A stretch of 64,000 nucleotides of DNA from an uncultured Rhodospirillaceae bacterium (GCA_964611435.1 CAZSXT010000014.1:27694-91693), one strand, 5' to 3'. Numbered from the stretch's first letter, positions 10,870-50,513 are shown. A program made the numbers and translations. Notes: generated from the letters alone by a model not told the origin.

Positions 10870-11165
10870 GACGGGTATTCTCCTTCGCAAATTGTTCGAC
10901 GCAATATGTAGCTCTCCGATGGCAACACTGCAATTCCCGGAACTGTGATTAATGACGTTGGCCCCGTTGTTTTCGCAGTAGCCTTGATTTGCACATTAAT
11001 CCTGGAATTATCCCTGCATTACCAACAAGTTATCCACAGTTTTTCCCCAGATTGCTTCGGCTCCGGCCCCTGGGCTGCGATTGTTCTGTAACTCCCGAGT
11101 ATGATACATTTCGCAGCCCGGATAGGAGAGCCGGGGCCACGCCAGAGATCATTCGGGAGGATAGA

Positions 11166-24489: not shown

Positions 24490-26318
24490 ACCGCTTCTTC
24501 CGCCGCGTCGGTACTTTCGTCCCGTATCTTGTTGCCCAGCTCGATGTAGCGGGCGACGTCGCAGTGTTTTTCGATCAGATCGTTGTAGCTCGTCTGCACC
24601 CGTTCCGCCGTTTCGGCAAGGATTGCCGCACCGTCTGCTGTGGGCGTCTTGACCGTACGTTCTATCCATTGATCACCGATATAGAGCGCATCCAGACCGG
24701 TGCGCATGAAACAGCTGATGGCGTCCGCGGGCGTTTCGACGATGGGTTCTTCCCGGTCGTTGAAAGATGTGTTGAGCAGGATGGGACAGCCTGTCTCCGC
24801 ATCAAACGCATCCAGCAAATCATAGTAGGGTTTGTTCTGCTTGGCGGAGACCGTCTGCACCCGGCAACTGCCATCGGCGTGGATTACCGCCGGGGCCTCG
24901 TCCAGATGGCCGTCAACCACCGCGCCCGCGATGATCATGAATGGGCTTTTCTTGGGGGCGTTCATGAAGGTTGGCACCCGGCCTTCCATGCAGCTTGGCG
25001 CGAAGGGGCGGAACCCTTCCCGGTGTTTGATCTCCCGGTTGATCTTGTCTTTCATATCCGCCGGCCGGGGATCGGCCAGGATGCTCCGGTTGCCGAGGGC
25101 GCGCGGACCGTATTCCGACGCGCCGGTCAACCGCCCGACAATTTTGCCGGTGGCGAGTTCCTTAGCGACGTCCGCAGGCGACGCCGTGCGGCTGGAAAGA
25201 TTCCAACGGCTCACTTGGTCTTGTAACCCGGCGTTACCGTGATCAACGCCAAGATAGGCGGCGTCCATGTGCCAGCGTTTTTTACCGCCTTTGGCGTAAT
25301 AGCCATAGAGCGCGCAGCCCAAGGGGATGCCTTCGTCGGACGCGGCAGGCTGAATATAAAGACCGCTGAAATGCCCGCTGTCATAGATTTGGCGGTTGAT
25401 GATGCAGTTCAGCGCCGCGCCGCCGGCCAGGCAGAGCTTATCCGCGCTGGTTTTCAGCTTCGCCAGCCACACCAAATAGAGAATGTCCTCTTCCAGGGTT
25501 TCCTGGGCTTGGCGGGCCATATTGACCCAGGTCTCGGCGACCAGGTCTTCGCTGTCTTCACCCGTATATTTCGGGGCGTCCGACATACCGAAAACGGTTT
25601 TGTCATGATTGATGATGAAGTCGTCGAACCGGTCCGGATCAACCGCCACATAGTCCTTGCGCTCGAACATATGGGCGAAGCCGGCCAGCGCCATGGTCTG
25701 TCCCGCGCCAAAAATGTCGTAGCCCAGATGGGCGGAAATTTTGTCATAGAAGAAAGAGGAATTGACAAAATGATCTCGACGCTCGGCCAATACCTCGCCG
25801 TCCTTATATGTGTCGCCCAGGTAGCCAATCCGGTCGATGGGCTTGAGGCTTTCTCCTTGGCCGATGTAAAGACCTGTGCCGCCCTCGGTCACCAGGATGG
25901 CCGCCTCGTCAAAAGGGGAGGCGAAGTAGGTGCTGGCCGCGTGGGCGTCCACGTGGTTGACCCAGCGCACTTTCGAGCGGTCTAGTTTAATCGTCTGTTC
26001 CGCCAGATAGTTCCAGAAGTGATTGTCGTCGTATCGAGGTTGATGCCGCCTGAGCGCGTTCTGATAGCCGAACTGGGAATTGGCCTCCGGCCAAATCTCC
26101 ATATGCCGGTCGATGCAGATCAAATCGACCTCGTCCAAACTGCTGAGACCCAAGGCCGCAAGGCAGTAATCTATCGACAAGAGCGGATAGGTGAAGGAAT
26201 GCTTTCGCCGGTTCAGCCGGGCCTCGGAAATGGCATGCACGGTCAGTGAACCGTTGTCGTCAGAGACGATGGCCGCGCCCGTGTCGTGGCTGAAACATTT
26301 TAGGCCGAGAACAATCAT
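24486..26318 (-). CDS. Carbamoyltransferase (NodU/CmcH family), paralog 1
   Basis: 610 aa with MIVLGLKCFSHDTGAAIV and the C-terminal LLNTSFNDREEPIV block. Confidence 0.9.
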   Translation of the reverse strand: MIVLGLKCFSHDTGAAIVSDDNGSLTVHAISEARLNRRKHSFTYPLLSIDYCLAALGLSSLDEVDLICIDRHMEIWPEANSQFGYQNALRRHQPRYDDNHFWNYLAEQTIKLDRSKVRWVNHVDAHAASTYFASPFDEAAILVTEGGTGLYIGQGESLKPIDRIGYLGDTYKDGEVLAERRDHFVNSSFFYDKISAHLGYDIFGAGQTMALAGFAHMFERKDYVAVDPDRFDDFIINHDKTVFGMSDAPKYTGEDSEDLVAETWVNMARQAQETLEEDILYLVWLAKLKTSADKLCLAGGAALNCIINRQIYDSGHFSGLYIQPAASDEGIPLGCALYGYYAKGGKKRWHMDAAYLGVDHGNAGLQDQVSRWNLSSRTASPADVAKELATGKIVGRLTGASEYGPRALGNRSILADPRPADMKDKINREIKHREGFRPFAPSCMEGRVPTFMNAPKKSPFMIIAGAVVDGHLDEAPAVIHADGSCRVQTVSAKQNKPYYDLLDAFDAETGCPILLNTSFNDREEPIVETPADAISCFMRTGLDALYIGDQWIERTVKTPTADGAAILAETAERVQTSYNDLIEKHCDVARYIELGNKIRDESTDAAEEAV

Positions 26319-34043: not shown

Positions 34044-35684
34044 ATGACGACGATGAGCGGCGCCGAGGCGCTGGTGCAGTCGATCAAGAGCTATGGCGTG
34101 GACACCATCTTTGCGCTGCCGGGCGCGCAGTTGGACCCCCTGTTCGACGTGCTGTACCGGGAACAAGACTCCATCCGCGTCATTCATACCCGTCATGAAC
34201 AAGGCACCGCCTATATGGCGTTCGGCTATGCCCAGTCCACGGGCCGGGTGGGCGTGAACCTGGTGGTGCCGGGGCCTGGTGTGCTGAATGCCGCCTCCGG
34301 GCTTTGCACGGCTCATGCCTGCGGCGCGCCGGTCCTATGTCTGGCGGGACAAATTCCGTCCAAATATATCGGCCAGGGCATCGGCCAGCTTCACGAACTG
34401 GCGGATCAGCCGGGCGCGCTGGCTTCGGTTACCAAATGGCGGGGGCGGGCGGAAAGTGCGGCGGATGCGCCGGCCAAGGTGCGGGAAGCCTTTGTACAGT
34501 TGAACAGCGGCCGCAAACAGCCGGTATTGCTGGAAATGGCGCCAGACATCATGGCTCGGCCCGGCGAGGTGGAACTGCTGAACCCGGTAGAAGATTTCCA
34601 GGAATACGATCCGGAACCCGACGAGGATCTGGTCGAACAGGCCGCGGCGCTTTTGGGTAATGCGGAAAACCCCGGCATCTTTATCGGTGGCGGCATCTAT
34701 GGCGCGGAAGAGGCATTGCTGGCGCTCGCCGAAGACTTGCAGGCGCCGGTCTATACCTCGCCCCACGGGCATGGAGCGATCGATTCACGCCATTATCTGG
34801 CCCAGAACCTTATGTGCGCCAAAGACATTTGGGACACGATCGATGTCGTGCTAGCGGTGGGCACTCGCTATCAGTCGCCCGGCAGCTGGCCCAAGATCGA
34901 TGGACAAAAACTGATCCGCATTGATATCGATCCCAAGCAGTCTTTGAATGTGGCCACGCCGGATATCCACATCGTCTCCACGGCGGAGAAGACGTTGACC
35001 CAGATCGTCAATCGGTTGCAGCGGCACAACCAAAGCCGGGATAACCGGGAAGAAGAACTGGCCGCGCACAAGTCCAAAATCATGTCCGATTTTGCGACGC
35101 TGGATCCCCAGCATTCCTACGCCATGGTCGTCCGCGAGGAACTAGCGGAGGACGGCATCGCCTGCTTTGACGTGACCCAAATTGGGTTCTACGCCTGGTT
35201 CGGCTTTCCGGTCTATGCGCCGCGCACCATGATTCAGTCCGGCTATCAGGGCACACTCGGGTATGTCTTCCCGACGGCATTGGGCGCAAAGGTCGCCAAC
35301 CCGGACAAGCAGGTGGTCGCAGTCACCGGCGATGGCGGCTTTATGTTCAATGTGCAAGAGCTGGCCACCGCAGCGCAGCACAACATCAACACCGTGACCG
35401 TCGTTTTCAATGACGGCGCGTTCGGCAACGTGAAGCGGAACCAGAAAGAGACCTTCGACGGCCGTTACATCGCATCAGAACTCAAAAATCCGGATTTCGT
35501 CAAATTGGCCGAGGCCTTTGGGGTCATGGGGTTGCGCACTGACTCCCCTGAAGGATTGCGAGGTGCGCTGCGCGAAGCCTTCAAAGCAGATGGTCCGGTC
35601 CTGATTGAGGTACAGGTGGGCGAAATGCCGTCTGCCTGGCCGTTCATGCCCTTGGTGCGGGCCAAGGATCAAACCAACGAGTAG
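34044..35684 (+). CDS. Thiamine-pyrophosphate enzyme (acetolactate-synthase-large-subunit-like)
   Basis: N-terminal TPP-pyrimidine domain (GAEALVQSIKSYGVDTIFALPG) and C-terminal GDGGFMFNVQELATA TPP motif. Confidence 0.85.
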   Translation: MTTMSGAEALVQSIKSYGVDTIFALPGAQLDPLFDVLYREQDSIRVIHTRHEQGTAYMAFGYAQSTGRVGVNLVVPGPGVLNAASGLCTAHACGAPVLCLAGQIPSKYIGQGIGQLHELADQPGALASVTKWRGRAESAADAPAKVREAFVQLNSGRKQPVLLEMAPDIMARPGEVELLNPVEDFQEYDPEPDEDLVEQAAALLGNAENPGIFIGGGIYGAEEALLALAEDLQAPVYTSPHGHGAIDSRHYLAQNLMCAKDIWDTIDVVLAVGTRYQSPGSWPKIDGQKLIRIDIDPKQSLNVATPDIHIVSTAEKTLTQIVNRLQRHNQSRDNREEELAAHKSKIMSDFATLDPQHSYAMVVREELAEDGIACFDVTQIGFYAWFGFPVYAPRTMIQSGYQGTLGYVFPTALGAKVANPDKQVVAVTGDGGFMFNVQELATAAQHNINTVTVVFNDGAFGNVKRNQKETFDGRYIASELKNPDFVKLAEAFGVMGLRTDSPEGLRGALREAFKADGPVLIEVQVGEMPSAWPFMPLVRAKDQTNE

Positions 35685-37585: not shown

Positions 37586-37616
37586 TTTTCCCTTCCTTTA
37601 ACTCCTATGCGTCATG

Positions 37617-37656
37617 CCCGAGTTGGGACCAATGAAAATTGGGACCAAGTCTCGGG
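37617..37656. repeat. Imperfect palindromic hairpin, copy 1 (CCCGAG-TTGG...CCAA-GT-CTCGGG) with internal direct repeat TTGGGACCAA x2
   Basis: Read directly from the FAH-selA intergenic region. It shares the arm design of copy 2. Confidence 0.5.
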
Positions 37657-37680
37657 TACCCAAATCAACTATCCATTGGA

Positions 37681-37711
37681 CCCCCGAGAATTGGCTGCGC
37701 CAACTCGGGGG
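37681..37711. repeat. Palindromic hairpin, copy 2 (CCCCCGAG-AA-TTGG-CTGCG-CCAA-CTCGGGGG)
   Basis: Stem of 8+4 bp with a 5-nt loop. No U-run follows. Confidence 0.6.
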
Positions 37712-37810
37712 CGACGCAGAAAATAAACAGACGAAACCCACCACCTTGTGATCTTAGGTACCGGTAAGCCGCCTTGACGGGACTCCGGCAGGCGTCTAGC
37801 GTTCGGGCGC

Positions 37811-37837
37811 GGGTGTGGGTTGAAGCGCACCCTTTTT
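37811..37837 (+). terminator. Terminator-like hairpin plus T5, 27 nt upstream of the selA ATG (terminator of an upstream transcript, or attenuator)
   Basis: GGGTGTG-GGTTGAAG-CGCACCC (7-bp stem including one G-U pair) followed by TTTTT. Confidence 0.6.
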
Positions 37838-37864
37838 GATCAACTCCGTGATGAGCTGACAGCC

Positions 37865-39283
37865 ATGGCCAAAGAAACTCAATCTCTCCATTCCTCCATT
37901 CCCTCCGTCGACAAGCTGCTGCGTCTGGATGCCGCCGCGCCTTTAATCGACGAGTACGGTCATCAGATGTGCGCCGTGGCCTTGCGTCAGGTGATTGACG
38001 AGACCCGCCGCGCCTTGGCAGACAAGGGCGAGGCGGCGTTGCCGCTGACCGAAGAGGCCGCCGTTATCGGCCGGCTTCATGATCGTCTGATCCGGATGAG
38101 CGCGCCGTCGTTGCGCCCCGTCATTAATCTCACCGGGACCGTGCTTCATACTAATCTGGGCCGTGCGCCCCTGCCGCAGGAAGCCATCGACGCCATGTGC
38201 GTGGTGGCCGGCGGCGCGTCCAATCTGGAATACGATTTGGCGAGCGGCAAGCGGGGTGACCGTGACACCCATATTGATGACCTGCTAGCGGAGATCACCG
38301 GCGCCGAGGCCGCGACGGTAGTCAACAACAATGCCGCCGCCGTGTTGCTGGTTCTCAACACACTGGCCAACCGCAAAGAAGTGCCGGTGTCCCGCGGCGA
38401 ACTGATCGAGATCGGCGGGGCGTTCCGTATTCCCGACATCATGAAGCGGGCGGGGGCCAAACTGGTGGAGATAGGCACAACCAATCGCACCCACCTGAAG
38501 GACTATGCCGAAGCGATCAGTCCCAAAACAGCGGCGCTGATGAAGGTGCATACCAGCAACTACACGGTTCAAGGCTTCACCAAGGAAGTCACGGGTAAGG
38601 AGCTGTCGGCCCTGGCACGCGAACACGATCTGCCCCTGATTGAGGATTTGGGCAGTGGTACGCTGGTCGACCTCAGCCGCTATGGGCTGCCCCACGAACC
38701 GACGGCCCAGGAAACCCTGGCCAATGGCGTGGATGTGGTGACGTTTTCCGGCGACAAGTTATTGGGCGGGCCGCAGGCCGGTTTGATTGTCGGCACGAAG
38801 GAGCTGGTCCAAAAGATCAAGAAGAACCCGATGAAGCGGGCATTGCGCCTCGACAAGGTGACCATCGCCGCGTTGACGGCGGTGCTGCAGCTCTACCGCG
38901 ACCCTGATCGGCTGGCCGCCCGCGTGCCGACCATCCGGCTATTGGCCCGGTCCGAGGCCGATATCCGCGCGGTGGCTGACCGGGTGAAGGCGCCGGTGGC
39001 TGACGCGCTCGGCGACAACTACGTGGTCCGCACGGTTGAAGTGCAAAGCCAGATCGGCAGTGGTTCATTGCCGGTGGAACGTCTGCTCAGCGTGGCGCTC
39101 TCAATCGAGCCCCTGAAGGGCAGCCGCGGCAGTGCGCTTAAGAAACTCGCCGCCGCTTTCCGCACCTTGCCCATACCGGTCATCGGCCGCACCCAGGATG
39201 ACGCCTTTCTGCTGGACCTGCGCTGTCTGGAAGATGAGGACACCTTCCTTGGCCAGCTCGGCGAACTGGGCCTCAAGTCATGA
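37865..39283 (+). CDS. selA: L-seryl-tRNA(Sec) selenium transferase
   Basis: The N-terminus [17 protein letters not shown] parallels E. coli SelA. The PLP-Lys block [13 protein letters not shown] is present. I chose the ATG at 37865 rather than the TTG at 37820, which lies inside the hairpin. Confidence 0.9.
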
Positions 39284-41205
39284 TTATCGCCACTGCCGGA
39301 CATATCGATCACGGCAAGACGGCGCTGGTCCGGGCGCTGACCGGCATTGATACGGACCGGCTGCCGGAAGAGAAAAAGCGGGGCATGTCCATCGATCTGG
39401 GCTTTGCCTATCATCCGCTGGAAAGCGGGCATGTCCTGGGCTTTGTCGATGTGCCGGGCCACGAGAAGTTTATCCGCAATATGCTGGCGGGCGTCACCGG
39501 TATCGATTACGCCATGCTGATTGTCGCCGCCGATGACGGGCCCATGCCCCAGACCGAGGAGCATCTAGCCATCCTTGATTTGCTGGGAGTGACCGACGGG
39601 ATTGTCGCCCTCACTAAAATCGACCGGGTGGACGCCGCTCGTATCGACGACGCCAAGGCGGAGATCGAACTCCTCCTTGACGGCACGTGTCTGCAGGGCG
39701 CGGACATTATGCCGGTCTCCGCTATCACCGGCAATGGTGTGGACGCAATCAAAGAACATCTGGAGGCGCTGACGGATATCGTCGGCGAAAAGCAGGGGGA
39801 AGGACATTTTCGCCTCGCCATCGACCGTTGTTTTACCGTGCAGGGCGCAGGCCTCGTCGTCACTGGCGCTGTGTTCTCCGGCAAGGTCACGGTGGGAGAC
39901 CATTTGGTGATTTCGCCGGAAGGCTGGGAAGCGCGGGTGCGGGGCATCCATGCGCAGAACCAGGAATCCGAGACCGGCGTCGTCGGCCAGCGTTGCGCCG
40001 TCAACCTCACCGGGCCCGATCTTCGCCGCTCGGAGGTGCATCGCGGCGGCTGGCTTCTAAGTCCGGAGATACACAAACCCGTGCCCCGGTTTGATGCGCG
40101 CATCCGGGTATTGCCGGGGGAGGCTAAACCGCTGCGTCACTGGACTCCGGTGCACGTGCATCTGGGCGCGGCGGAAGTTTTGGGGCGGGTGGCCATCCTG
40201 GGCGAAAAGTCTCTCGCCCCCGGCGAAGACGGCTTGGTACAGATCGTCCTCGACCGGCAAATCGGCGCGTTGAAGGGAGACGGGTTCATCCTGCGGGACC
40301 AATCGGCCCAGCGGACCCTCGCCGGCGGCCGGGTGATCGATCCGTTTTCACCGGCCCGCAATCGCGCCAAACCGGAACGGTTGGCCTTCCTTGCCGACAT
40401 GGATCAGCGGGACGCGGACGAGGCGCTGGCGGCGCTGCTGGCGCATAATCCGGCGGGCATTGATCTGAAGGCCTTTACCACCGCCTGGAACCTGACGGCG
40501 GCGGATAAAGAAGTCGTGTTTGAGATGGCGGAGATGTTTGTCGGTGGGACCGAGGCCGCGCCGATCGCTTTTTCGCCGGATCATTGGCGGGCGCTGAATG
40601 AAGAGACGTTGGCAAACCTGAAGGCCTGGCATGAAAAGAATCCGGACAAGGCCGGTCTTAACACCCATGGGCTACGCTCGGCATGCTCCACCCGTATTCC
40701 GGTGCCGGTGTTCCAGAGCGTGCTCGATCATCTGGTCGAGGAAAAGCAGATCATTAACCTTGGCGCGGGCTATTGTCTGCCGGGGTTCGAGCCCACGATG
40801 TCCAAGAAGGACACACAACTTTGGAACAAGGTAAAGCCGATCCTGGAAGAGGAGTTCACACGGCCCCCGGTGGTCCGGGAACTGGCGGATCAACTCAATG
40901 TGGACCACAAGGACCTGGAGAAATATCTGGTCCGGATCGCCAAGCTGGGCATGGTCAAGCAGGTGGCCAAGAACAGGTTCTTCCTGCCCGAGGCCGTCCT
41001 TGAACTGGCCGCGGTGGTGGAGAAACTGGGCCAGGGCGCGAACGGGGAAGGTTTTGGCGCGGCCGAGTTCCGGGATCAAACAGACACCGGTCGCAACCTC
41101 GCCATCGAGGTGCTGGAATTTTTCGACAAGTCCGGGCTCACCTTCCGCCGGGGCGACACCCGAAAGGTGATGAAATCGGTCTCTGACGTTTTCGGGGAGA
41201 AGTAG
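39280..41205 (+). CDS. selB: Selenocysteine-specific elongation factor
   Basis: G-domain [21 protein letters not shown] and TKID, plus a long winged-helix C-terminal extension. ATGA overlap with selA. Confidence 0.9.
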
Positions 41206-42819
41206 TTACTTGCCACCCAACCGTGGTGCCGCGAAGGTGCCGGAGCCCCGCTGCGGATAGCGGGCCAGCGCAAAGCCCTGCTGATGGCAGGCACGGGTGA
41301 TCACGGTCGCTTTCCAGAATGCCCCGCCGATCACGGCGAAGCCGCCGCCGATGCCGAGAAGCCAGGCCGGACTCGTCGGCGAAATGGTCATGACGGTGAG
41401 GAACAAGATCGCCGGCAACAGGTTCCCGACCAGCAGGACCATGGGCGTCGCTTTATACAGGATAACCTGCGACAGGGGGCCGATGCCGTTCTCGGCCGCC
41501 TTGGTCACGTAGGCCCGCCATAAGAGCACGTTGACCACAATCAGCGCCAACCCGGCCAGCGGCAGGGGGTCAGCAGAGGCCAGCGGCTGCGGATCAATGG
41601 CCAAGATCACCGCCAACAGCCCCGCGCCTTCCAGCAGGCCCGAGGTCATCAGCATCCAGGGCATCAGCGGCACCCGCCAGGACGGGATGCCCTTGGCGGC
41701 GTGCAGGATGCGCGCCTGGCAATACAGGAACAGCAAGGCAAACACCGCGACCAGCGCGTGAAAAACGGGATGTGGCTGCAGATAATCAATGAAGCCCAAC
41801 AGATAGAGCGCGACGACGGCGTACACCTCCCGCGACATCCACGATGTTTGCGGCCGCAGGATCACATAGAGGGCGCGGAGCTTCCGGCCGATCTTGAGCC
41901 AGACGAAGAACAGCCCGACGGCGATGATCGCGCCGGCGCCGGCAAAAATATTCAGCATCGCCGATTCAGCCAAACCGGCCATTACATGCATCAGGTACGT
42001 CAGTAAAATGAGCCCCGAGCCGATGCCGCCCATGATGAAGTTCATAGCGGCGCGCATATCCCAGAAAGTCTGCGCGTTCCCGGTTAGCGGATTTTCCGGA
42101 TCGCTCAGCCGTTCGCCATCCACATCTGAATCCCCCGGATCGCGGCCCGGGACGGCCGGCGTTTCGTAGAGGTATTTAATCTGCGGATCAGTGCCGAGTT
42201 CAGCATGCATTTGGAATGACGGACGGCTCGCCACCTGTTGAGAGACGATGCTCTCCGGGTCATTGAAATCCCCGAAGGTGATGGCCGATGCAATGCAGGC
42301 CGCCGCACAGGCCGGGGTGGCGGACTGATCAACGCCGGGCTTGAGACCGTTCTCCAACCCGTCATCCACGCGGGTAATGCAGAAGGTGCATTTCTGGGCA
42401 ACGCCCAGCCGGTCGTCATGGGCGACGGTTTTCTCCTGCAACGTCTCTTCGCCGAAATAGAACTTCTTGTCGTGGACGATGGTGCGCGCCTGGTACGGGC
42501 ACGCCACCGCACAGGATGCACAGCCGATACAGAGGTCGTAGTCCATGGTCACCAGACCATCGCCCCGCTGCTTGGTCGCGCCGGACGGGCAGACCGGTAC
42601 ACAAGGAGGTTCCGCACAATGTTGACAGCCGACCACCATAAACAAACGTTCTACATTCGGGAAAACGCCGGTCTCTACATCCAGAACGCGCCGCCACTGG
42701 ACACCCGGCACTGTGTCGTTGGCGTGTTTGCAGGCGACCGTGCACGTCTGGCACCCAACGCAACGGTTCACATCGACGGTCATGCCCCAGCGGGGTGTAT
42801 GTGGTGACATCTCGTTCAT
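41206..42819 (-). CDS. Fusion protein: four-cluster [4Fe-4S] ferredoxin-type subunit joined to NrfD/PsrC-like 8-TM membrane anchor
   Basis: Cys motifs CVGCQTCTVAC, CQHCAEPPCVPVC, CIGCASCAVAC and CTFC, followed by about 8 hydrophobic helices in the C-terminal ~290 aa. No Tat leader. Confidence 0.85.
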   Translation of the reverse strand: MNEMSPHTPRWGMTVDVNRCVGCQTCTVACKHANDTVPGVQWRRVLDVETGVFPNVERLFMVVGCQHCAEPPCVPVCPSGATKQRGDGLVTMDYDLCIGCASCAVACPYQARTIVHDKKFYFGEETLQEKTVAHDDRLGVAQKCTFCITRVDDGLENGLKPGVDQSATPACAAACIASAITFGDFNDPESIVSQQVASRPSFQMHAELGTDPQIKYLYETPAVPGRDPGDSDVDGERLSDPENPLTGNAQTFWDMRAAMNFIMGGIGSGLILLTYLMHVMAGLAESAMLNIFAGAGAIIAVGLFFVWLKIGRKLRALYVILRPQTSWMSREVYAVVALYLLGFIDYLQPHPVFHALVAVFALLFLYCQARILHAAKGIPSWRVPLMPWMLMTSGLLEGAGLLAVILAIDPQPLASADPLPLAGLALIVVNVLLWRAYVTKAAENGIGPLSQVILYKATPMVLLVGNLLPAILFLTVMTISPTSPAWLLGIGGGFAVIGGAFWKATVITRACHQQGFALARYPQRGSGTFAAPRLGGK

Positions 42820-42822
42820 GGT

Positions 42823-45567
42823 TCAGACCGCCTGCGGCCGTTTCGGCCCGTCGCCCCGTGTGATTTTGACCCGCGCCACGTCAGAGCCGCTGCCCGTGGA
42901 GTCCGTCAATTTAAGCGACAAAGATGTGAGAGAGTTCAGGCTCGGCAAGTGGAGATCCTTGGCGAAGGGCGTCTTCCAGTGATCGAACTGGCCGATCATG
43001 ACCACGGTGTCCGGGCGGATGCCTTCCCGCAGCACGGCGTATCCCTTGGTGATGCCGGAGACGGATTCGATGGTCACCGGATCGCCTTCTTCCAGGCCCA
43101 GCTCCCGGCCGCGAGTGCGGTTCATGATGACGCCCTTGTGGCCGGTGACGTTCTGCGCCACTTCGTTGATCAGCGGGATGCCGACGTTCAGTCCCCAGGA
43201 ATACTGCATGGAGCGGCTGGTGAGCGCCCAGAACGGATAGTCCTCCGGGTCATAGCCGGATTCCTGCACATGCTCCGTCCAGATATCCGGGAAGCGATGG
43301 TACTTGGGCAGGGGTTCGTATTCTTCCAGCTGTGTATCCCACCACTCCACGCCGATTTCGTGCAGCCGGTGGGCAAGCTGGGTGCCATGTCGCAGGATGC
43401 GTTCCTGATAGGGCAATTCGAACCGCATCCCATTTTTCTTGATGTGGGGGTAGAGGAACCATTCCAGCTGCGGGAAGGGGCGCAGCATGTAGCCCTTTTC
43501 CTTGAACCAGTCGATGCCGTTTATTTCCTCGCCACCGGAGAGCTCATGACTAGCAGCCTTGGCGGTCTTGTCCCAAATCTCTTCGACGCCGTAGGCTTGT
43601 TCCAGCTCCAGCCCGTAGTCGAAATCGTCGGTGACCAGCCGCGCGCCGTGGGCGCCCCTGTTGATGGCGTTGTTGTACTTATCAAGAATGCCCGACCGCT
43701 TCGCCAGCTCGGTGGCGATATCGGTCATGTCCATGCTATCGACCGGGCTCTCGACAGCCGGCTGGCGGATGGTCCAGCCCTGTTGGGTCCAAAGCTGTTC
43801 GACGAATTTGGTGCCGCCCAATTGAATAAGCTGCAGGCTTTCCAGGTCGGTGTTCTCAGGCAGCAGGATGTCGGCGAAGTGGTTGGTCTCGTCCGGCGTG
43901 TAGGCGAAGGACACAATGAACGGGAACTCGGCCACCCGCTCCGCCACCTCCGGCGCATTCCACGAAGAGATCGCCGGATTGGTGCGATAGCAGAACCAAA
44001 TGTCCGGCTTGGTCGGCGTTGGCCAGTTCTTCGGCGGGTTTTTCTGGAACAGCCATGGCAAATGCGCCGGGCCCAGCGCCGGCGACCAGGCGGAATTCGC
44101 AACCAGCGGCACCAAGGTCTGATAGGCGTTTCGGATCTGTGGGTTCCGGCTCCATTCCTCTTTGCTGGTCGGATTGAAGGGGAATTCCATAAACCCGTCC
44201 AAGCCTTTTACGGCGGAGGTAAACCGGTCGTTGGCCGGCCGGTTGAGCTTCACGTTGGTGCCGATCATGCCGCCCGGCACTTCCAGCGCGCCGACCAGGC
44301 ACAAGAGCATCGTCCGCGCCCAACAGCAGTTGTACCCGCCCCAACCGTTGTTGACCGTTTTGCCGAGTAACACGGCGACAGGCCGGTAAGGCAAGGTCTC
44401 TCCATCGATCTCGATGGTCGCGCCAATGTTGGCTTGTGAAAGGAACTCGTCGCCGATTTCCCGGATTCGCTCTGCCGGTACGTCGCATTCGGCCGCCGCC
44501 CAGTCGGGCGTGTATTCTTTCATATGATCCATCAGGACCTGGAAGGAGGGGCGCACCTCGACATTATCGTGGGTCCACTCCTGGCCGTCGGCGCCGATTT
44601 CCAGACCGGAGAGCGTATGCGTTCCCTCCATGGCCGGTTCACTGATCTCGGCATCGTAAGGCTTCGCCGTATTGTCGGCGAGGTCCAGGATCATCGGTTT
44701 TTGCGTCGCCGGGTCACGCAGGTAAAACCCGTTGGGGGCGATCAGGTAGGGGGAGTTGGTATCCCGGGTCAGATAGGGAACGTCACAGACCTCCCGCCAA
44801 TTGCGCTCAATCAGGATGCGATGAATGACGCCATACAGGAACGCGGCGTCTGTCTTCGGCTTGATCGGCACCCACTCCGCCGCCACCGCGCCGGTGACCG
44901 ACAGATGGGGCTCAACCTGGACCCGCTTTAATCCTCTCGCCCTGGCGTCCGCATGCCGCCAGATGCCAGCGACCCCTGTGGCCGCGTCGCCGTTGTGGCC
45001 GCAGGACAGAATATATTTCACCCGGGGCGTGTCCGGCGCGACGATAAAGGCCCGGTGCCACAGTTCGCCGTACAGATGTTCAGAATGATAGCACTTCACC
45101 CCCTGACCCGCGCCGAAGCCTAGATCCACCTTGCCGATTGCTGACAGGAGCGCAGGGAAGGTGCCCATATATTGGGTTGGGGTGCCGCCGCCGCCGAAGC
45201 TTGCGGCAATTCTCGGATAGCCGGACGAATCGGTGAGGCCGGTGTCGAACACCTCCTTCAGCTTGCCGGCGACGAGTTCCAGGGCTTCGTCCCAGGAGAT
45301 GGGCTCGAATCCAGGGTCCTCGTTCTTGCCCTTTTTCGGATTGGTGCGCCGCATGGGCTGCTTGATGCGGTGGGGGTTATAGGTCTTCTGGATCAGGCCG
45401 TAGGCTTTCACGCAGACCCGTCCGCCGCCGGGATGGGCATCCTGAATGCCGTATTGGGATTCCAGCCGAGTGGCGACGCCATTCTCCACCTCGATCTCCA
45501 TCAGGTCCGGCCCCGCCACGCACTGATAGCAGAAGGATTTGACGGTCTTTTTGGTGGACTGATCCAT
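42823..45567 (-). CDS. Molybdopterin (Mo/W-bisPGD) oxidoreductase catalytic subunit, no Tat signal, incomplete N-terminal FeS motif
   Basis: 914 aa with DMSO-reductase-family architecture. The N-terminus MDQSTKKTVKSFCYQCVAGPD has no twin arginine. It has C-x2-C, then no Cys at +4. GGAGAGG RBS. Confidence 0.9.
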   Translation of the reverse strand: MDQSTKKTVKSFCYQCVAGPDLMEIEVENGVATRLESQYGIQDAHPGGGRVCVKAYGLIQKTYNPHRIKQPMRRTNPKKGKNEDPGFEPISWDEALELVAGKLKEVFDTGLTDSSGYPRIAASFGGGGTPTQYMGTFPALLSAIGKVDLGFGAGQGVKCYHSEHLYGELWHRAFIVAPDTPRVKYILSCGHNGDAATGVAGIWRHADARARGLKRVQVEPHLSVTGAVAAEWVPIKPKTDAAFLYGVIHRILIERNWREVCDVPYLTRDTNSPYLIAPNGFYLRDPATQKPMILDLADNTAKPYDAEISEPAMEGTHTLSGLEIGADGQEWTHDNVEVRPSFQVLMDHMKEYTPDWAAAECDVPAERIREIGDEFLSQANIGATIEIDGETLPYRPVAVLLGKTVNNGWGGYNCCWARTMLLCLVGALEVPGGMIGTNVKLNRPANDRFTSAVKGLDGFMEFPFNPTSKEEWSRNPQIRNAYQTLVPLVANSAWSPALGPAHLPWLFQKNPPKNWPTPTKPDIWFCYRTNPAISSWNAPEVAERVAEFPFIVSFAYTPDETNHFADILLPENTDLESLQLIQLGGTKFVEQLWTQQGWTIRQPAVESPVDSMDMTDIATELAKRSGILDKYNNAINRGAHGARLVTDDFDYGLELEQAYGVEEIWDKTAKAASHELSGGEEINGIDWFKEKGYMLRPFPQLEWFLYPHIKKNGMRFELPYQERILRHGTQLAHRLHEIGVEWWDTQLEEYEPLPKYHRFPDIWTEHVQESGYDPEDYPFWALTSRSMQYSWGLNVGIPLINEVAQNVTGHKGVIMNRTRGRELGLEEGDPVTIESVSGITKGYAVLREGIRPDTVVMIGQFDHWKTPFAKDLHLPSLNSLTSLSLKLTDSTGSGSDVARVKITRGDGPKRPQAV

Positions 45568-45590
45568 CTCTGCCTCTCCTCGGAAGACGG

Positions 45591-45998
45591 TTAGCCGCCC
45601 AGCACCTTTTCGCGTTTTGCCTGAAGGCGTTCAAAGGTTTTGGCGACATCGACAACAAAGCGATTGTGTTTGCCGCGCCCGACTTCTTCAAGGGAATCCT
45701 TTACCGTCGCCTCCATAGAAACAGCGCGGCCGTCCACTCCAACAACGGTGATGGTAATCTCTACGCTATCGCCCTCTACGGTCGCGCCCATATGATCCAC
45801 GGAAACATTAGTGCCCACGGTGTTCTCGCCCTCGTCGAGATGGTCCATCAGAAACGCGTGACAGGTGTATTCGATATCCTCGACCATGTTGGGGGTGGAA
45901 TACACCCGGCCTTCGTCGCCCATGAAGCCGATGGTGCGGTCCCGGTCGACCTTGATCCTATTGGTGTGCGTGAGACCCGGTTTTAATGTGTCCTTCAC
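45591..45998 (-). CDS. Hotdog-fold thioesterase-like protein
   Basis: 135 aa from the GTG at 45998, 3 nt after AGGGAGGGG. It resembles the small fluoroacetyl-CoA-thioesterase-like hotdog family (KPGLTHTNRIKV...). It lies 23 nt upstream of the Mo subunit gene. Confidence 0.7.
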   Translation of the reverse strand: MKDTLKPGLTHTNRIKVDRDRTIGFMGDEGRVYSTPNMVEDIEYTCHAFLMDHLDEGENTVGTNVSVDHMGATVEGDSVEITITVVGVDGRAVSMEATVKDSLEEVGRGKHNRFVVDVAKTFERLQAKREKVLGG

Positions 45999-46126
45999 CT
46001 GCCCCTCCCTTGATGGCAAACCTGTTTGTTCGACAATATTTTACCAGATAAGGGGTGTCGAACACTATTGTTCGGGGGGCGAACAATAGAGATTGAAGAA
46101 GATTAGCAGAATCTGCGAATCCTGAT

Positions 46127-46738
46127 ATGAGTAAAACCATGACGCCGATGGTTTCTTTGTCCAGATTTCGGGTTTTGTTGACCGCGATTGTGCTTGGGAC
46201 AGCGAATTGCTTACCGGCCCTTGCGGAAAGCGAGTTTGCCGAGATCGACAAATCCCGCTCCGAAATCAGCATCCTCGGCGATGACGGCTTTATTCTAAAG
46301 CGAATGGCGAAGAACGGTCCTTACCAGTACCGGGAAGCCGTGCACTTGGATGGCGGGGTCATCATGTATTCGCGAACCCACCCTGGCGCTCACTTCACCT
46401 ATGCCAACGATCCGCGGACGGATATAAGGGACAGATTGAATGATTCCCCAAAGGCCAAAGCCTTCGGCCTTAGTGTGGAGATTAAAGAGGTCAAGCGGGG
46501 CGAAACCGTGGATTTCTATTATCTCTACGCCGCTAAGGGAAATTTCAAGGGAAGCTGTTTCCACGCTAGCGGATTTTTCGGTGTCGGGGATTTTGCGGGT
46601 AGCCAAGTTATGGATGTCAGTGTGTGCCGTCCGTCCAAATGGGGAGGTCCCGGAAAACTGCGGGACGAAATGCAGGACATCATCAAGCGGTTAAAATTCG
46701 ACGGCGGCAAGCTGAACCGCAAGGAGAAGGGCAGTTAG
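46127..46738 (+). CDS. Hypothetical secreted protein
   Basis: 203 aa with a signal-peptide-like N-terminus ending LPALAESE. I recognise no family. Confidence 0.6.
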   Translation: MSKTMTPMVSLSRFRVLLTAIVLGTANCLPALAESEFAEIDKSRSEISILGDDGFILKRMAKNGPYQYREAVHLDGGVIMYSRTHPGAHFTYANDPRTDIRDRLNDSPKAKAFGLSVEIKEVKRGETVDFYYLYAAKGNFKGSCFHASGFFGVGDFAGSQVMDVSVCRPSKWGGPGKLRDEMQDIIKRLKFDGGKLNRKEKGS

Positions 46739-46744
46739 AAACCG

Positions 46745-48580
46745 CTAGTCCAGCTCGAACGCGTCTTTGTAGTCCAATTTAAGTGTGGGATCCTGGTCTT
46801 CTTTCTGAAGCACGCAATTGCCGATCACCAGCAAATCAAGCTCCGTGCCCATGAGGCAACGAAAAGCATCTTCCGGTGTGCAGACGATGGGTTCGCCGCG
46901 GACATTAAAACTTGTATTGGCGACAACCGGGCAGCCGGTTAGGTCTTTAAATCTCGTCAGCAGCGCGTGGTACTTTGGATTTCGTTCCGCGTCCACGGTC
47001 TGTATGCGGGCAGAGTAATCGACGTGAGTCACGGCCGGAATGTCAGAGCGGGAAATATTGAGCTTATCGATCCCGAACAGTGATTTCTCGGCTTCGGTCA
47101 TTTCCTTTTGGTGGGACTTAGCCACATCGGCCACCATCAGCATGTAGGGACTGTCTGTATCCATATCAAACCAATCGGCCACATCTTCCCGGCGCACTGA
47201 CGGCGCGAACGGCCGGAAGGATTCCCGGAATTTGATTTTCAGGTTGAGGGTCTTTTGCATTTCCGGCGAGCGCGCATCTCCCAGGATCGACCGGTTGCCG
47301 AGCGCGCGGGGTCCGAATTCCATCCGGCCCTGGAACCAGCCGATGGCCTTGCCGTCGGCAAGTGCTTGAGCGGTCAGATCGATGACCTCGGTTTCCGAGT
47401 GGCGGGTTAGCTTGCCGCCCGCCGCAGTGATCCGGCTCTCTATTTCATCATCGCTATAGTCCGGCCCCAGGTAGGAGCCGAACATAGCGTCCGCCGCCCC
47501 GTTCAGATGACGGGGCTGGTCTTGATACAAGTGATAGGCGCAGAGCGCCGCGCCGAGGGCGCCGCCGGCGTCACCGGCTGCGGGCTGAACCCAGATATTT
47601 TCAAACGCGCCATCGCGCAGCACCTTACCGTTGGCCACGCAGTTCAGCGCAACGCCGCCGGCCAGGCACAGGTTCTTGGCGCCGGTTTCCTTTGCCAGGG
47701 ATCGGGTCAGCTTCAGAACGATCTCTTCCGTGACGGCCTGGATGGAGGCGGCCAAGTCCATATCCCGATCGGTCAGCAGGCTCTCCGGATTGCGGGCTGG
47801 CGCGCCGAACAACTTGGCGAACTTGTCGTTGGTCATCCGCAGCCCGGTGCAGTAATCGAAATAGGACTGATCCAAGCGGAAGGTGCCGTCCTCCTTCACG
47901 TCGATCACATTGTCCAGGATCAGGTCCTTGTACTTGGGCTCCCCATACGGCGCGAGGCCCATAACCTTGTACTCACCCGAATTCACCCGAAATCCGGTGT
48001 AATAGGTAAAAGCTGAATACAGTAGCCCTAAGGAATGGGGGAAGTGTAGTTCCCTGAACATTTCCAATTTCTTGCCTGACCCGTGGGCGACGGATGTGGT
48101 CGCCCACTCGCCGACGCCGTCCATGGTCAGCACCAGCGCGTCTTCAAAGGGCGAGGGGAAGAAGGCGCTGGCAGCGTGGCTTTGATGGTGCTCGGCAAAC
48201 AGCAGCTTGTTCTTCCAGTCGAAGTCGGGATCGTAGTGTTGGAACTTTTTGCGCAGTAGGTCCTTTTGGAAAAGTTTCTCCCTAAGCCACACAGGCATGG
48301 CGGCGCGGAACGACGTAAATCCTCTGGGTGCGAATGACAAATACGTTTCCAGAAGGCGCTCGAACTTCAAAAAAGGTTTGTCATAAAAAGCGACAAAATC
48401 GACGTCGCTTAAGGAGATGCCGGCTTCTTGCAAGCAATATTCCACCGCACCCGCAGGGAAGTCGGAATCGTGTTTCTTTCGGGTGAACCGTTCTTCCTGA
48501 GCGGCGGCGGCAACCCGGCCATCTTCGATCAGCGCGGCGGCGCTGTCGTGGTAGAACGCAGAAATTCCGAGAATACGCAT
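46745..48580 (-). CDS. Carbamoyltransferase (NodU/CmcH/SxtI-like), paralog 2
   Basis: 611 aa with MRILGISAFYHDSAAALI and the C-terminal VANTSFNVRGEPIV block. Confidence 0.9.
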   Translation of the reverse strand: MRILGISAFYHDSAAALIEDGRVAAAAQEERFTRKKHDSDFPAGAVEYCLQEAGISLSDVDFVAFYDKPFLKFERLLETYLSFAPRGFTSFRAAMPVWLREKLFQKDLLRKKFQHYDPDFDWKNKLLFAEHHQSHAASAFFPSPFEDALVLTMDGVGEWATTSVAHGSGKKLEMFRELHFPHSLGLLYSAFTYYTGFRVNSGEYKVMGLAPYGEPKYKDLILDNVIDVKEDGTFRLDQSYFDYCTGLRMTNDKFAKLFGAPARNPESLLTDRDMDLAASIQAVTEEIVLKLTRSLAKETGAKNLCLAGGVALNCVANGKVLRDGAFENIWVQPAAGDAGGALGAALCAYHLYQDQPRHLNGAADAMFGSYLGPDYSDDEIESRITAAGGKLTRHSETEVIDLTAQALADGKAIGWFQGRMEFGPRALGNRSILGDARSPEMQKTLNLKIKFRESFRPFAPSVRREDVADWFDMDTDSPYMLMVADVAKSHQKEMTEAEKSLFGIDKLNISRSDIPAVTHVDYSARIQTVDAERNPKYHALLTRFKDLTGCPVVANTSFNVRGEPIVCTPEDAFRCLMGTELDLLVIGNCVLQKEDQDPTLKLDYKDAFELD

Positions 48581-48751: not shown

Positions 48752-49186
48752 CTAAAACTGGTCTTTCATTGTTTCAGGCAAGGGGCCTGGCGGGTCCCTT
48801 TCGATCCAGTAGGACGAGGCCTTGTCGTCAAATTGTAAGGGCAGGGGGACCTTCCCAAGCATCTTCATGATTATCCCAATCGGTGTAATCGTAACGAAGA
48901 AGATAAGGCCCAAGATTATCGGGCTGACGATGCGATGGAGAAGGAGGCCGAATTTGAACCAAATCATGTTCAGCGGCCGAAGCCAGACGGGGACGATCAA
49001 AGCAACCGCCAGGAAGGCAACGGCAACGGCGCCGGCCCAAAGCCGGATGCTTTCTCCGTTCAGAAGCGGCCAGGCGGCAATGACCACGAAAACAACGGCG
49101 AAGACGATCCCGAACGATCGGTCGGAACCCAGTTTGACATCCCGATCTTGGCGGCCAAGTTCCGCATGGACTTGTGAATCGGTCAC
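48752..49186 (-). CDS. SxtJ-family membrane protein
   Basis: 144 aa with 3 TM helices. GTG start 7 nt after GGAGAT. The sequence (RSFGIVFAVVF...WFKFGLLLHRIVSPIILGLIFF) matches my memory of SxtJ-like proteins found beside carbamoyltransferases. Confidence 0.75.
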   Translation of the reverse strand: MTDSQVHAELGRQDRDVKLGSDRSFGIVFAVVFVVIAAWPLLNGESIRLWAGAVAVAFLAVALIVPVWLRPLNMIWFKFGLLLHRIVSPIILGLIFFVTITPIGIIMKMLGKVPLPLQFDDKASSYWIERDPPGPLPETMKDQF

Positions 49187-49223: not shown

Positions 49224-50513
49224 TCATTCGTTTTCATCCTGTAGGAGGTCTTCTTCTTCCTCTTCGATGATCTCCGGCATGCCGACCCAGCGCATAAACA
49301 GCGGCACCGCTCGTTGGCGCTCGGCGTCACTCGTTCCTTGGCCTGCAAGAAAAGAGCGGACGATCTTGGGCGAGAACATGTCGTTGAATGTCATATAGGA
49401 CCAGAGGACAACCAGCTCGCCGCAATGGGCCGGCAGTCGGTCCACCGCTTTGTAAAGCCAGTCCTGGGTCGCGCCCTCCCGGGTCTCCCCGGCTTTCACT
49501 TCTTGCTCCAAAAATTGCCGTAGCGCGTTTTTGGCTTCATTGACGATGATCGGTTTGTAAATCATCAACACTCGGAATATGTCAAAATCGCCGAACTTGG
49601 GAGGGTCATATCCGTCGGCCTTTGAGATTGCTTTCCAGAAGCCCTCGGATTTTTGAAGGTTCTGCTTTTCGGCTGGTGACTGGACGGTTTGTTTGCTCTC
49701 TTGTTTCTTGAACTTACCAAGAAGGCCGCCCTTTCCTTTCTCTTCCTTCTTTTTCTTCGGCTTCGGGATGCCTTTGACGTCACTGTTGGCGAGGGCCGAA
49801 CGGAATTCCTTGATGCGGTCTTCCCAAATCAGCAGAACGATATTCTCCGTGTCCGGTTTGTCGAATTCCTCGAAGAATGTGCGCTTGTGTAGTTGATCGG
49901 CAGAGACGCTGTCGGCCATGTTCCGGATACGCCGATGGTTCAGCATGTCGGGCACGATGAACTTACGCACGGCGGCGATAAACACATCCGTGAATTTCGG
50001 ATTGAGGGGATAGGGTTCCTGACTGTCATCTACGTGAAACAGCGCCAGCCGTTCCTCTAGAAAATCGCAGAAGTAATCCCTGAAGGCGGCTTCAAAACTG
50101 TCATGGGTTGCGGTAGCTTCCGCCGATGCAGCGGCAGGCGCTTCACCGGAGGCCGCCCCTTGAAACACCTGCTGCAGCTCCAATGCCCGATTTTTGATAT
50201 GGGACTTAAACTCTTCATCGCCAAGCTGACTGCATTGCTCCAGGAATTGGAGGGTGACCGTCGTTGACTTGGCGATTTCGGGATCCAGGGTGCTTCCGGA
50301 TTCATGTTTGCCGAGCGCGCCAATAATCGTATCAACCGACGTGTCGATCGTTGAAATAAGTGTATCCTTATTCGCATCCGGACCGACAGACGCGATCGCC
50401 GCAAGGATGTTGCTTAAATTCTGTTCGTTGCTCTCGTCCAAAGAGGGGGTCCCGATCACTTTGCAGTACGCGGTCTCAACGTAAGGTAGGGCGAGCGAAG
50501 TTAACCCCGGCAA
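49224..50513 (-). CDS. Hypothetical protein (429 aa) with Lys-rich linker and acidic C-terminal tail
   Basis: Long ORF 37 nt upstream of the SxtJ-like gene on the same strand. It is AT-richer than the flanks. The only candidate start is TTG at 50513, and there is no internal Met until about residue 190, so the start is uncertain. I recognise no family. Confidence 0.65.
   Translation of the reverse strand: MPGLTSLALPYVETAYCKVIGTPSLDESNEQNLSNILAAIASVGPDANKDTLISTIDTSVDTIIGALGKHESGSTLDPEIAKSTTVTLQFLEQCSQLGDEEFKSHIKNRALELQQVFQGAASGEAPAAASAEATATHDSFEAAFRDYFCDFLEERLALFHVDDSQEPYPLNPKFTDVFIAAVRKFIVPDMLNHRRIRNMADSVSADQLHKRTFFEEFDKPDTENIVLLIWEDRIKEFRSALANSDVKGIPKPKKKKEEKGKGGLLGKFKKQESKQTVQSPAEKQNLQKSEGFWKAISKADGYDPPKFGDFDIFRVLMIYKPIIVNEAKNALRQFLEQEVKAGETREGATQDWLYKAVDRLPAHCGELVVLWSYMTFNDMFSPKIVRSFLAGQGTSDAERQRAVPLFMRWVGMPEIIEEEEEDLLQDENE

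Follow-up and report, generated by a model that had tools for sequence, protein, structure and literature searches.

A putative PadBCD-type acyl-CoA oxidoreductase with a fused ferredoxin-anchor subunit and an adjoining FlK-type thioesterase gene in an uncultured Rhodospirillaceae bacterium

We analysed a stretch of 64,000 nucleotides (nt) from an uncultured Rhodospirillaceae bacterium (GCA_964611435.1 CAZSXT010000014.1:27694-91693; hereafter, the window). Three co-directional open reading frames (ORFs) on its minus strand, spanning 41206-46019, encode a small hotdog-fold thioesterase, the catalytic subunit of a molybdenum (Mo) enzyme, and a protein in which an iron-sulfur (FeS) subunit and a membrane anchor are fused. 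The operon likely specifies a cytoplasm-facing, quinone-reducing complex of the PadBCD type (phenylacetyl-CoA:acceptor oxidoreductase, EC 1.17.5.1), which oxidises the alpha carbon of an acyl-coenzyme A (acyl-CoA) and is made of two polypeptides together with a dedicated product thioesterase. A first-pass annotation of the window had offered a PadBCD-like acyl-CoA oxidoreductase as a guess, and the guess is supported by the kinship of all three Pad components to the window proteins and by the position of the catalytic subunit in a clade that is sister to PadB. The genes and sites are as follows (lengths in amino acids, aa; Mo-bisPGD, molybdenum bis-pyranopterin guanine dinucleotide cofactor; Tat, twin-arginine translocation; TM, transmembrane).

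45591..45998, minus strand: FlK-type hotdog thioesterase, first gene of the operon; 135 aa, Pfam PF22636 (FlK), 2.2e-29
42823..45567, minus strand: PadB-like Mo-bisPGD catalytic subunit without Tat leader; 914 aa, Molybdopterin and Molydop_binding
45412..45531, minus strand: three-Cys iron-sulfur site FS0, C13-x2-C16-VAG-P20-D21...C52; from NapA alignment and invariance
45091..45093, minus strand: TGC codon of Cys159 (GQGVKCYHSEH), candidate Mo ligand; from motif position
41206..42819, minus strand: PadC-PadD-like fusion gene; 537 aa
42163..42792, minus strand: PadC-like four-[4Fe-4S] ferredoxin domain, fusion residues 10-219; 54% identity to Thauera PadC
42073..42162, minus strand: linker of ~30 residues, fusion residues 220-249; between the PadC and PadD alignments
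41206..42072, minus strand: PadD-like 8-TM anchor of NrfD/PsrC fold, fusion residues 250-537; from identity, AlphaFold and Foldseek
46027..46085, no strand assigned: candidate promoter/operator region; inverted repeats and a sigma-70-like -35/-10 pair

The gaps are 23 nt between the hotdog and Mo genes (45568-45590) and 3 nt between the Mo and fusion genes (42820-42822), the layout of a three-gene minus-strand operon that the first-pass annotation had described. The hotdog gene most likely starts at the GTG at 45998, which is preceded by a putative ribosome-binding site (AGGGAGG) and gives a product of 135 aa. The same length is obtained by gene callers on identical metagenomic contigs. The earlier identification of the leading gene as a small hotdog-fold thioesterase also stands; the match to PF22636 covers the whole profile.

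Kinship of the catalytic subunit to PadB

A word-indexed search with the Mo subunit retrieves thousands of relatives, many of which bear the JGI name 'phenylacetyl-CoA:acceptor oxidoreductase', apparently from KO assignment. When 1.84 billion cluster representatives are searched exhaustively with HMMER, the nearest protein (P0121, 57% identity) represents a 90%-identity cluster of Thauera proteins. The Mo subunit is 57% identical to Thauera PadB (P0271) over 906 residues with 5 gaps, and has in common with it the motifs CYNCVAGPD and GQGVKCVHSEH, the latter with tyrosine in place of valine. A tblastn search of a plasmid collection yields neither a close relative nor a reference PadB, the best match being 28% identical.

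P0271 and relatives at least 67% identical to it occur in canonical pad clusters. In Azoarcus sp. DN11, a PaaX gene is followed by genes for an FdhD-like protein, PadB (918 aa), PadC (215 aa), PadD (305 aa), PadEFGHI, which is a five-gene 2-oxoacid:acceptor oxidoreductase set, and PadJ, a PaaK-like ligase. The order is FdhD-PadB-PadC-PadD-PaaX in Thauera, PadB-PadC-PadD-PadEFGHI in Rhodoblastus, and FdhD-PadB-PadC-PadD in Motiliproteus. Because this genomic context is the canonical pad cluster, the Thauera/Azoarcus clade represents true PadBCD. The roles of PadJ, PadBCD, and PadEFGHI have been stated previously (PMC5109826, PMC4453571), and padC (EbA5395) and padD (EbA5396) are separate genes in Aromatoleum EbN1 (PMC5109826).

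In a neighbor-joining tree built from 30 sampled sequences of the window type, 30 of the canonical type, and 13 outgroups, the window-type and canonical clades are each monophyletic and are sister to one another, with the window protein outside the canonical clade. Members of the same clade share 72% identity on average, and members of different clades 56%. The first-pass annotation had allowed for a placement among characterised families that do not depend on CoA; the protein clusters with PadB instead. Nevertheless, phenylacetyl-CoA need not be the substrate, because the window protein belongs to the sister clade and not to canonical PadB. A scan of one-per-species genomes finds at least 582 stretches with a relative of the catalytic subunit, window-type and canonical clades taken together, and the window-type clade (hereafter, the fused clade) is at least as populous as the canonical one. 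For the comparison of gene neighbourhoods, we used 80 fused-clade loci on one-genome-per-species contigs, whose Mo subunits are 63-97% identical to that of the window. All 80 are from metagenome-assembled genomes of Alpha-, Beta-, and Gammaproteobacteria.

In both large ORFs, the called start is already the first start codon available downstream of an in-frame stop, and the FeS cysteines begin at residue 13 of the Mo subunit and residue 20 of the fusion. Since there is no start further upstream and the cluster cysteines come so early, a signal peptide is excluded in both proteins, and the in-frame stop leaves no room for a cryptic Tat leader ahead of the called start, a possibility raised in the first-pass annotation. 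In an alignment with Desulfovibrio NapA, C13, C16, and C52 correspond to FS0 cysteines 1, 2, and 4, and Pro20 takes the position of cysteine 3. The motif C13-x2-C16-V-A-G-P20-D21...C52 is invariant in 79 of 79 relatives and is also found in Thauera PadB. The outgroups (38-48% identity; Syntrophales, Thermodesulfobacteriota, and Chloroflexota) likewise carry CxxC..GPD, while relatives at 30-33% identity keep a normal third FS0 cysteine and in some cases have twin-arginine leaders. Neither the lack of a Tat leader nor the three-Cys FS0 is thus peculiar to this locus. Both had been described correctly at first pass, including the loss of the third cysteine (here Pro20-Asp21), but as oddities of the operon; they characterise the whole PadB superclade, canonical PadB included. 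The FS0 cluster may be a [3Fe-4S] cluster, by analogy with arsenite oxidase, or a [4Fe-4S] cluster ligated by Asp21.

The candidate Mo-ligand cysteine in VKCYHSEH is correctly numbered as residue 159. It is invariant in 79 of 79 relatives and in Thauera PadB (GQGVKCYHSEH in the window versus GQGVKCVHSEH in Thauera), and from its position in the motif it probably ligates molybdenum.

PadB is immediately preceded by an FdhD-like gene in the loci of Thauera, Azoarcus, and Motiliproteus (L085-L088, ~9140-9990) but not in that of Rhodoblastus (L089), and no such gene occurs in the window or in any of the 80 fused-clade loci. FdhD acts as a sulfurtransferase in Mo cofactor maturation. Because the fused clade has no FdhD-like gene, the two clades may differ in cofactor maturation or in a sulfido ligand. 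In one further canonical-clade locus (L090, 6001-9659), a PadB with 67% identity to that of Thauera has only an FdhD-like gene downstream, with neither PadC nor PadD; this enzyme may be a soluble variant that lacks an anchor.

The fused ferredoxin-anchor subunit and its orientation

The 537-aa protein matches Fer4_11 and other 4Fe-4S dicluster families of Pfam, DmsC weakly (1.8e-6), and NrfD below its cutoff. The best NCBIfam match of the FeS domain is DsrO (163 bits versus a cutoff of 200 bits), and NrfC and ArrB are also among the top matches. Residues 10-219 are 54% identical to Thauera PadC (215 aa), and residues 250-404 are 45% identical to Thauera PadD. The sixteen cysteines of the FeS domain form four motifs, and all are invariant among 42 sequences. 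The order of the B, C, and D moieties is the same as in the pad clusters. However, PadC (215-221 aa) and PadD (279-305 aa) are separate proteins in four canonical loci.

The linker between the two domains is acidic and partly conserved, with P221, R226, L245, and G247 invariant, and is modelled by AlphaFold with low confidence. The full-length fusion lies directly downstream of the Mo gene in 67 of the 69 relatives with enough sequence. Because the fusion recurs at full length and its linker is partly conserved, it is genuine and not an assembly artefact.

AlphaFold places eight helices in residues 251-509, with predicted local distance difference test (pLDDT) values above 90. The top Foldseek match of the anchor is PsrC (2vpw_C; E 3.2e-06, target TM-score 0.77), followed by the NrfD-type ActC of alternative complex III. 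The anchor thus has the NrfD/PsrC-type pattern, an eight-helix bundle of PsrC fold that partners a four-cluster ferredoxin. In accordance, the first-pass description of a four-cluster FeS subunit and an 8-TM NrfD/PsrC-type anchor in a single 537-aa chain agrees with the cysteine count, the helix count, and the fold.

To assign the sides of the membrane, we counted lysine and arginine residues (K+R) on either side using the AlphaFold helix boundaries. The loops and tail on the side of the FeS domain contain 14, and those on the opposite side contain 0; the corresponding family means are 15.8 and 1.0. By the positive-inside rule, the FeS domain and the Mo subunit are therefore cytoplasmic. Together with the absence of a Tat leader, this supports the cytoplasm-facing orientation that had been proposed for the complex at first pass.

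Thioesterase, gene neighbourhoods, and candidate substrates

The best solved relative of the hotdog protein is the fluoroacetyl-CoA thioesterase FlK of Streptomyces cattleya (PDB 3kv7, 3p2q), which belongs to the same PF22636 subfamily and is of similar size (~135-140 aa). A threonine, a glutamate, and a histidine of the hotdog protein align with the FlK catalytic triad, which we take to be Thr42, Glu50, and His76, and are conserved. The two proteins differ in that the E-value to FlK is just 1.7e-12, and in that FlK serves self-resistance in fluorometabolite producers, whereas the window hotdog gene sits in a Mo oxidoreductase operon. FlK is known for discriminating alpha-activated acyl-CoA from acetyl-CoA. 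By analogy, the FlK family is a plausible source of a product-selective hydrolase, and the substrate in the window system would be a 2-oxoacyl-CoA.

In 36 of 75 relatives (48%), from several proteobacterial classes, the hotdog gene immediately precedes the Mo gene in the same orientation, and the linkage seen at first pass is thus syntenic. No FlK-domain protein is encoded within 6-10 kb of the canonical loci examined. Neighbourhoods were compared by gene clustering weighted by GC content at third codon positions (GC3) and by tblastn independent of gene calls, antisense shadow ORFs being common in GC-rich DNA. In 20 of the 80 loci, an AMP-dependent acyl-CoA ligase is encoded upstream in the same orientation, and 15 of these have the order ligase-hotdog-Mo-fusion. 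Family III CoA-transferases occur in 9 loci, and 5-6 loci have a PaaK/PadJ-like ligase. Altogether, 40 loci have some CoA-activating enzyme, and 56 have a CoA-activating enzyme or the hotdog gene. PaaX homologues (41% identity) are divergent from ligase-hotdog-Mo in three loci (L056, L062, and L065), and genes for an IorA/IorB-like oxidoreductase lie upstream in 4. The full PadEFGHI set occurs in none of the 80 loci; only L038 has distant matches of the pyruvate:ferredoxin oxidoreductase type (31-39% identity). Of the pad-pathway partners, the fused clade thus shows only PaaX and PadJ-like ligases. Other recurring neighbours are short-chain dehydrogenases/reductases (SDR), crotonase, thiolase-like, and UbiD proteins, and three-subunit enzymes of the xanthine-dehydrogenase type. 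Because the neighbourhoods are mixed, they suggest more than a single acid substrate across the fused clade.

PadBCD of Thauera aromatica, Azoarcus evansii, and Aromatoleum aromaticum converts phenylacetyl-CoA, two quinones, and two H2O to phenylglyoxylate, two quinols, and CoA. In work of Rhee and Fuchs from 1999, this Mo-FeS enzyme is said to be membrane-bound, to consist of 93-, 27-, and 26-kDa subunits, to oxidise phenylacetyl-CoA with quinone, to take its oxygen from water, and to be stable to oxygen. Phenylglyoxylyl-CoA was reportedly a free intermediate, which the preparations hydrolysed while leaving phenylacetyl-CoA intact.

Carrying the mechanism over from PadBCD, we infer the chemistry, the quinone acceptor, and the kind of acid for the window operon. 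A carboxylic acid, with arylacetic acids as the lead candidates, would first be converted to its CoA thioester by a ligase or CoA-transferase encoded elsewhere in the genome; in many relatives, such a gene comes first in the operon. The PadB-like subunit, with a Mo-bisPGD cofactor probably ligated by Cys159, would then oxidise the alpha-methylene of the acyl-CoA to give a 2-oxoacyl-CoA, in two two-electron steps and with oxygen from water. The electrons would pass through the three-Cys FS0 and then along the PadC-like domain with its four [4Fe-4S] clusters, and would reach quinone at a site in the eight-helix PadD-like domain. Finally, the FlK-type thioesterase would hydrolyse the 2-oxoacyl-CoA to the 2-oxo acid and CoA and spare the substrate thioester. 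Hydrolysis of the 2-oxoacyl-CoA, phenylglyoxylyl-CoA, is needed in the known pathway (PMC9765128), and a thioesterase is listed as part of the pathway (PMC13416013).

Several observations weigh against this assignment. The fused clade has no biochemically characterised member, and the identity of 56-57% to canonical PadB leaves room for a different substrate. The hotdog gene is missing from about half of the relatives, 24 of the 80 loci show neither this gene nor a CoA-activating enzyme, and the ligase common in relatives is of a generic FadD-like kind, not specific for phenylacetate. The window contains no homologue of CoA ligase, PaaK, PaaX, PadEFGHI, or FdhD and no PadJ, and its other scanned genes are not aromatic-catabolic. 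AlphaFold confidence is low for the FeS domain of the fusion, only the membrane domain being modelled confidently. In addition, ungapped HMMER alignments put the ligand cysteine of PsrA and ArrA 5-6 residues upstream of Cys159, and the role of Cys159 as Mo ligand presupposes a small insertion or deletion with respect to both proteins.

A narrower form of the same assignment is that the complex is a phenylacetyl-CoA:acceptor oxidoreductase isoenzyme with the canonical substrate and product, phenylacetyl-CoA and phenylglyoxylate, and differs from PadBCD in packaging alone. The identity to PadB and the JGI naming of homologues point in this direction, as do the PaaX homologues beside three operons and the PadJ/PaaK-like ligases in L018, L022, L023, L028, and L048. 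The upstream IorAB-like genes are also consistent with it, since enzymes of this kind in related systems convert arylpyruvate to arylacetyl-CoA. However, the fused clade is monophyletic and apart from the canonical clade, the complete PadEFGHI set is missing throughout it, the commonest adjoining ligase is the generic one, the other neighbours vary, and the window has no phenylacetate-related gene. We therefore consider the isoenzyme a serious possibility, though on balance a doubtful one.

It is improbable that the Mo enzyme acts in the cytoplasm on a substrate without CoA, for instance as a hydroxylase or oxidase of a free acid, an aldehyde, or a heteroatom compound, and that the hotdog gene merely encodes a co-transcribed housekeeping or unrelated thioesterase. 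Mo-bisPGD enzymes are catalytically versatile, and the loci without hotdog gene or other CoA-related neighbour would fit such a substrate. In the wider family, the Mo gene also occurs in a bare two-gene unit (L084), or alone with FdhD (L090). On the other hand, the sole characterised relative at this level of identity uses a CoA ester. Among the operon partners, CoA ligases and CoA-transferases are much the most frequent, with the ligase gene immediately upstream in the same orientation in 20 loci and the transferase gene in 4. Moreover, the hotdog gene is close-coupled to the Mo gene for translation (23 nt) and keeps its position across several proteobacterial classes.

A respiratory reductase of the Psr/Phs/Arr/Ttr kind, which would reduce polysulfide, thiosulfate, arsenate, or a similar compound with quinol as donor, is effectively refuted by homology and topology: the best sequence matches among solved structures are indeed PsrA (1.5e-22) and ArrA (3e-21; HMMER), and among NCBIfam families the catalytic subunit scores highest against PhsA and ArrA, and the FeS domain against DsrO, NrfC, and ArrB, but identity is ~25% versus 57% to PadB, and neither large protein comes near the cutoff of any NCBIfam equivalog (PhsA, 134 versus 694 bits; ArrA, 107 versus 1600 bits). 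PsrABC of Thermus thermophilus (2vpw) and ArrAB (6cz7) resemble the PadBCD-type complex of the window in combining a Mo-bisPGD subunit, a four-cluster ferredoxin, and an 8-helix NrfD-type anchor, for which PsrC is the closest fold. Unlike it, they are exported by the Tat system, face the periplasm, have a four-Cys FS0 where the window protein and PadB have three cysteines, consist of separate B and C subunits, and reduce inorganic substrates.

Other features of the window and the wider role of the clade

The gene selB (39280-41205, plus strand) converges on the fusion gene with zero intergenic bases, and selA is at 37820-39283. The first-pass annotation had counted the adjacency of selAB as a new feature. 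The adjacency is real but confined to the closest Rhodospirillales relatives (6 of the 80 loci, L001-L006; at least 76% identity), and no functional link was found. We considered and rejected a role of selAB in making the Mo enzyme, as Cys159 has a TGC codon and is cysteine in all 79 relatives. A scan of the window for ORFs that read through an in-frame TGA yields only short or shadow candidates. ARAGORN finds no tRNA in the window and hence no selC, and Rfam has no match in the window or upstream of selA; no RNA resembling a selenocysteine insertion sequence (SECIS) was found. At 37600-37730, upstream of selA, is an inverted repeat, CCCGAGTTGG...CCAACTCGGG, for which Rfam gives no match even at an E-value of 1; on identical contigs, a 39-aa ORF is called here.

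Upstream of the hotdog gene, TGTTCG-N26-CGAACA (46027-46064) brackets a sigma-70-like -35/-10 pair on the minus strand, and a palindrome, TGTTCG-N5-CGAACA, is located at 46069-46085. With no more than one mismatch, this 17-nt palindrome recurs in the upstream regions of L001, L002, L006, L007, L015, and L071, and none is found in 598 kb of downstream background. The interval 46027-46085 is thus a candidate promoter and operator. The 6-N26-6 geometry resembles that of PaaX boxes, which we take to be TGATTC-N26-28-GAATCA; the window has no PaaX gene.

A gene for a thiamine pyrophosphate (TPP) enzyme is at 34044-35684 (plus strand; NF006122, acetolactate-synthase-like), and its cluster recurs near fused-clade operons in 9 of the 80 loci. 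As a weak lead, this enzyme could decarboxylate the 2-oxo acid product. Its identification as benzoylformate decarboxylase was rejected, as that family ranks well below acetolactate synthase and glyoxylate carboligase. In L012, L015, L016, L031, and L046, a conserved divergent block adjoins the Mo operon upstream and encodes GTP cyclohydrolase I, a MetE-like protein, an unannotated protein of ~183 aa, an SDR, and a TauD-family dioxygenase. This block may be a pterin-related module.

Elsewhere in the window, a 1455-aa ORF (10989-15356, plus strand) has GC3 of 0.68, good coding statistics, and no Pfam match at 1e-5. Two genes encode NodU/CmcH-type carbamoyltransferases (46745-48580 and 24486-26318, both minus strand), one of which is followed by SxtJ-family and DUF5989 genes, as called on the identical contigs L081-L083; a further interval of note is 48752-49186 (minus strand). 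ORFs of 429 aa (49224-50513) and 203 aa (46127-46738) have no NCBIfam match, and the identical contigs record no Pfam family for them.

Automated annotation already labels proteins of this kind PadB-like. We found no description of a fused PadCD or a hotdog-linked PadB in the literature, which is weak evidence of novelty given that subscription journals were thinly covered. Three features go beyond what we found described: the PadC-PadD fusion, the linkage to an FlK-type thioesterase, and the large sister clade without PadEFGHI and FdhD. The hosts of the fused clade are mostly uncultured Alpha-, Beta-, and Gammaproteobacteria, many of them from marine samples, rather than denitrifying Rhodocyclales. 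To our knowledge, PadBCD is the only enzyme that alpha-oxidises a CoA-activated acid without O2, and we know of studies of it in only a few denitrifying Betaproteobacteria.

Tentatively, and with more doubt than confidence, we can extend the argument to the clade as a whole. It would then represent a widespread quinone-linked route of alpha-oxidation that is independent of oxygen and tolerant of it, leading from acid to acyl-CoA, 2-oxoacyl-CoA, and 2-oxo acid in largely uncultured Alpha-, Beta-, and Gammaproteobacteria, many of them from marine and other settings that look oxic. Its substrates would reach beyond phenylacetate, it would dispense with the oxygen-sensitive PadEFGHI step, and its three-Cys FS0, possibly a [3Fe-4S] cluster, would be tuned to a high-potential quinone.

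The fused clade combines a ferredoxin-anchor fusion with a thioesterase of its own and lacks the oxygen-sensitive downstream enzyme. If its members are active on arylacetyl-CoAs or other acyl-CoAs, they would give many environmental bacteria an entry into acid catabolism that is independent of oxygenases and coupled to the respiratory chain. The long-noted phenylglyoxylyl-CoA hydrolase step would then be assigned to a defined protein family, and the simplified complex of two polypeptides would offer a cytoplasm-facing Psr-type Mo/FeS/NrfD member for structure determination.

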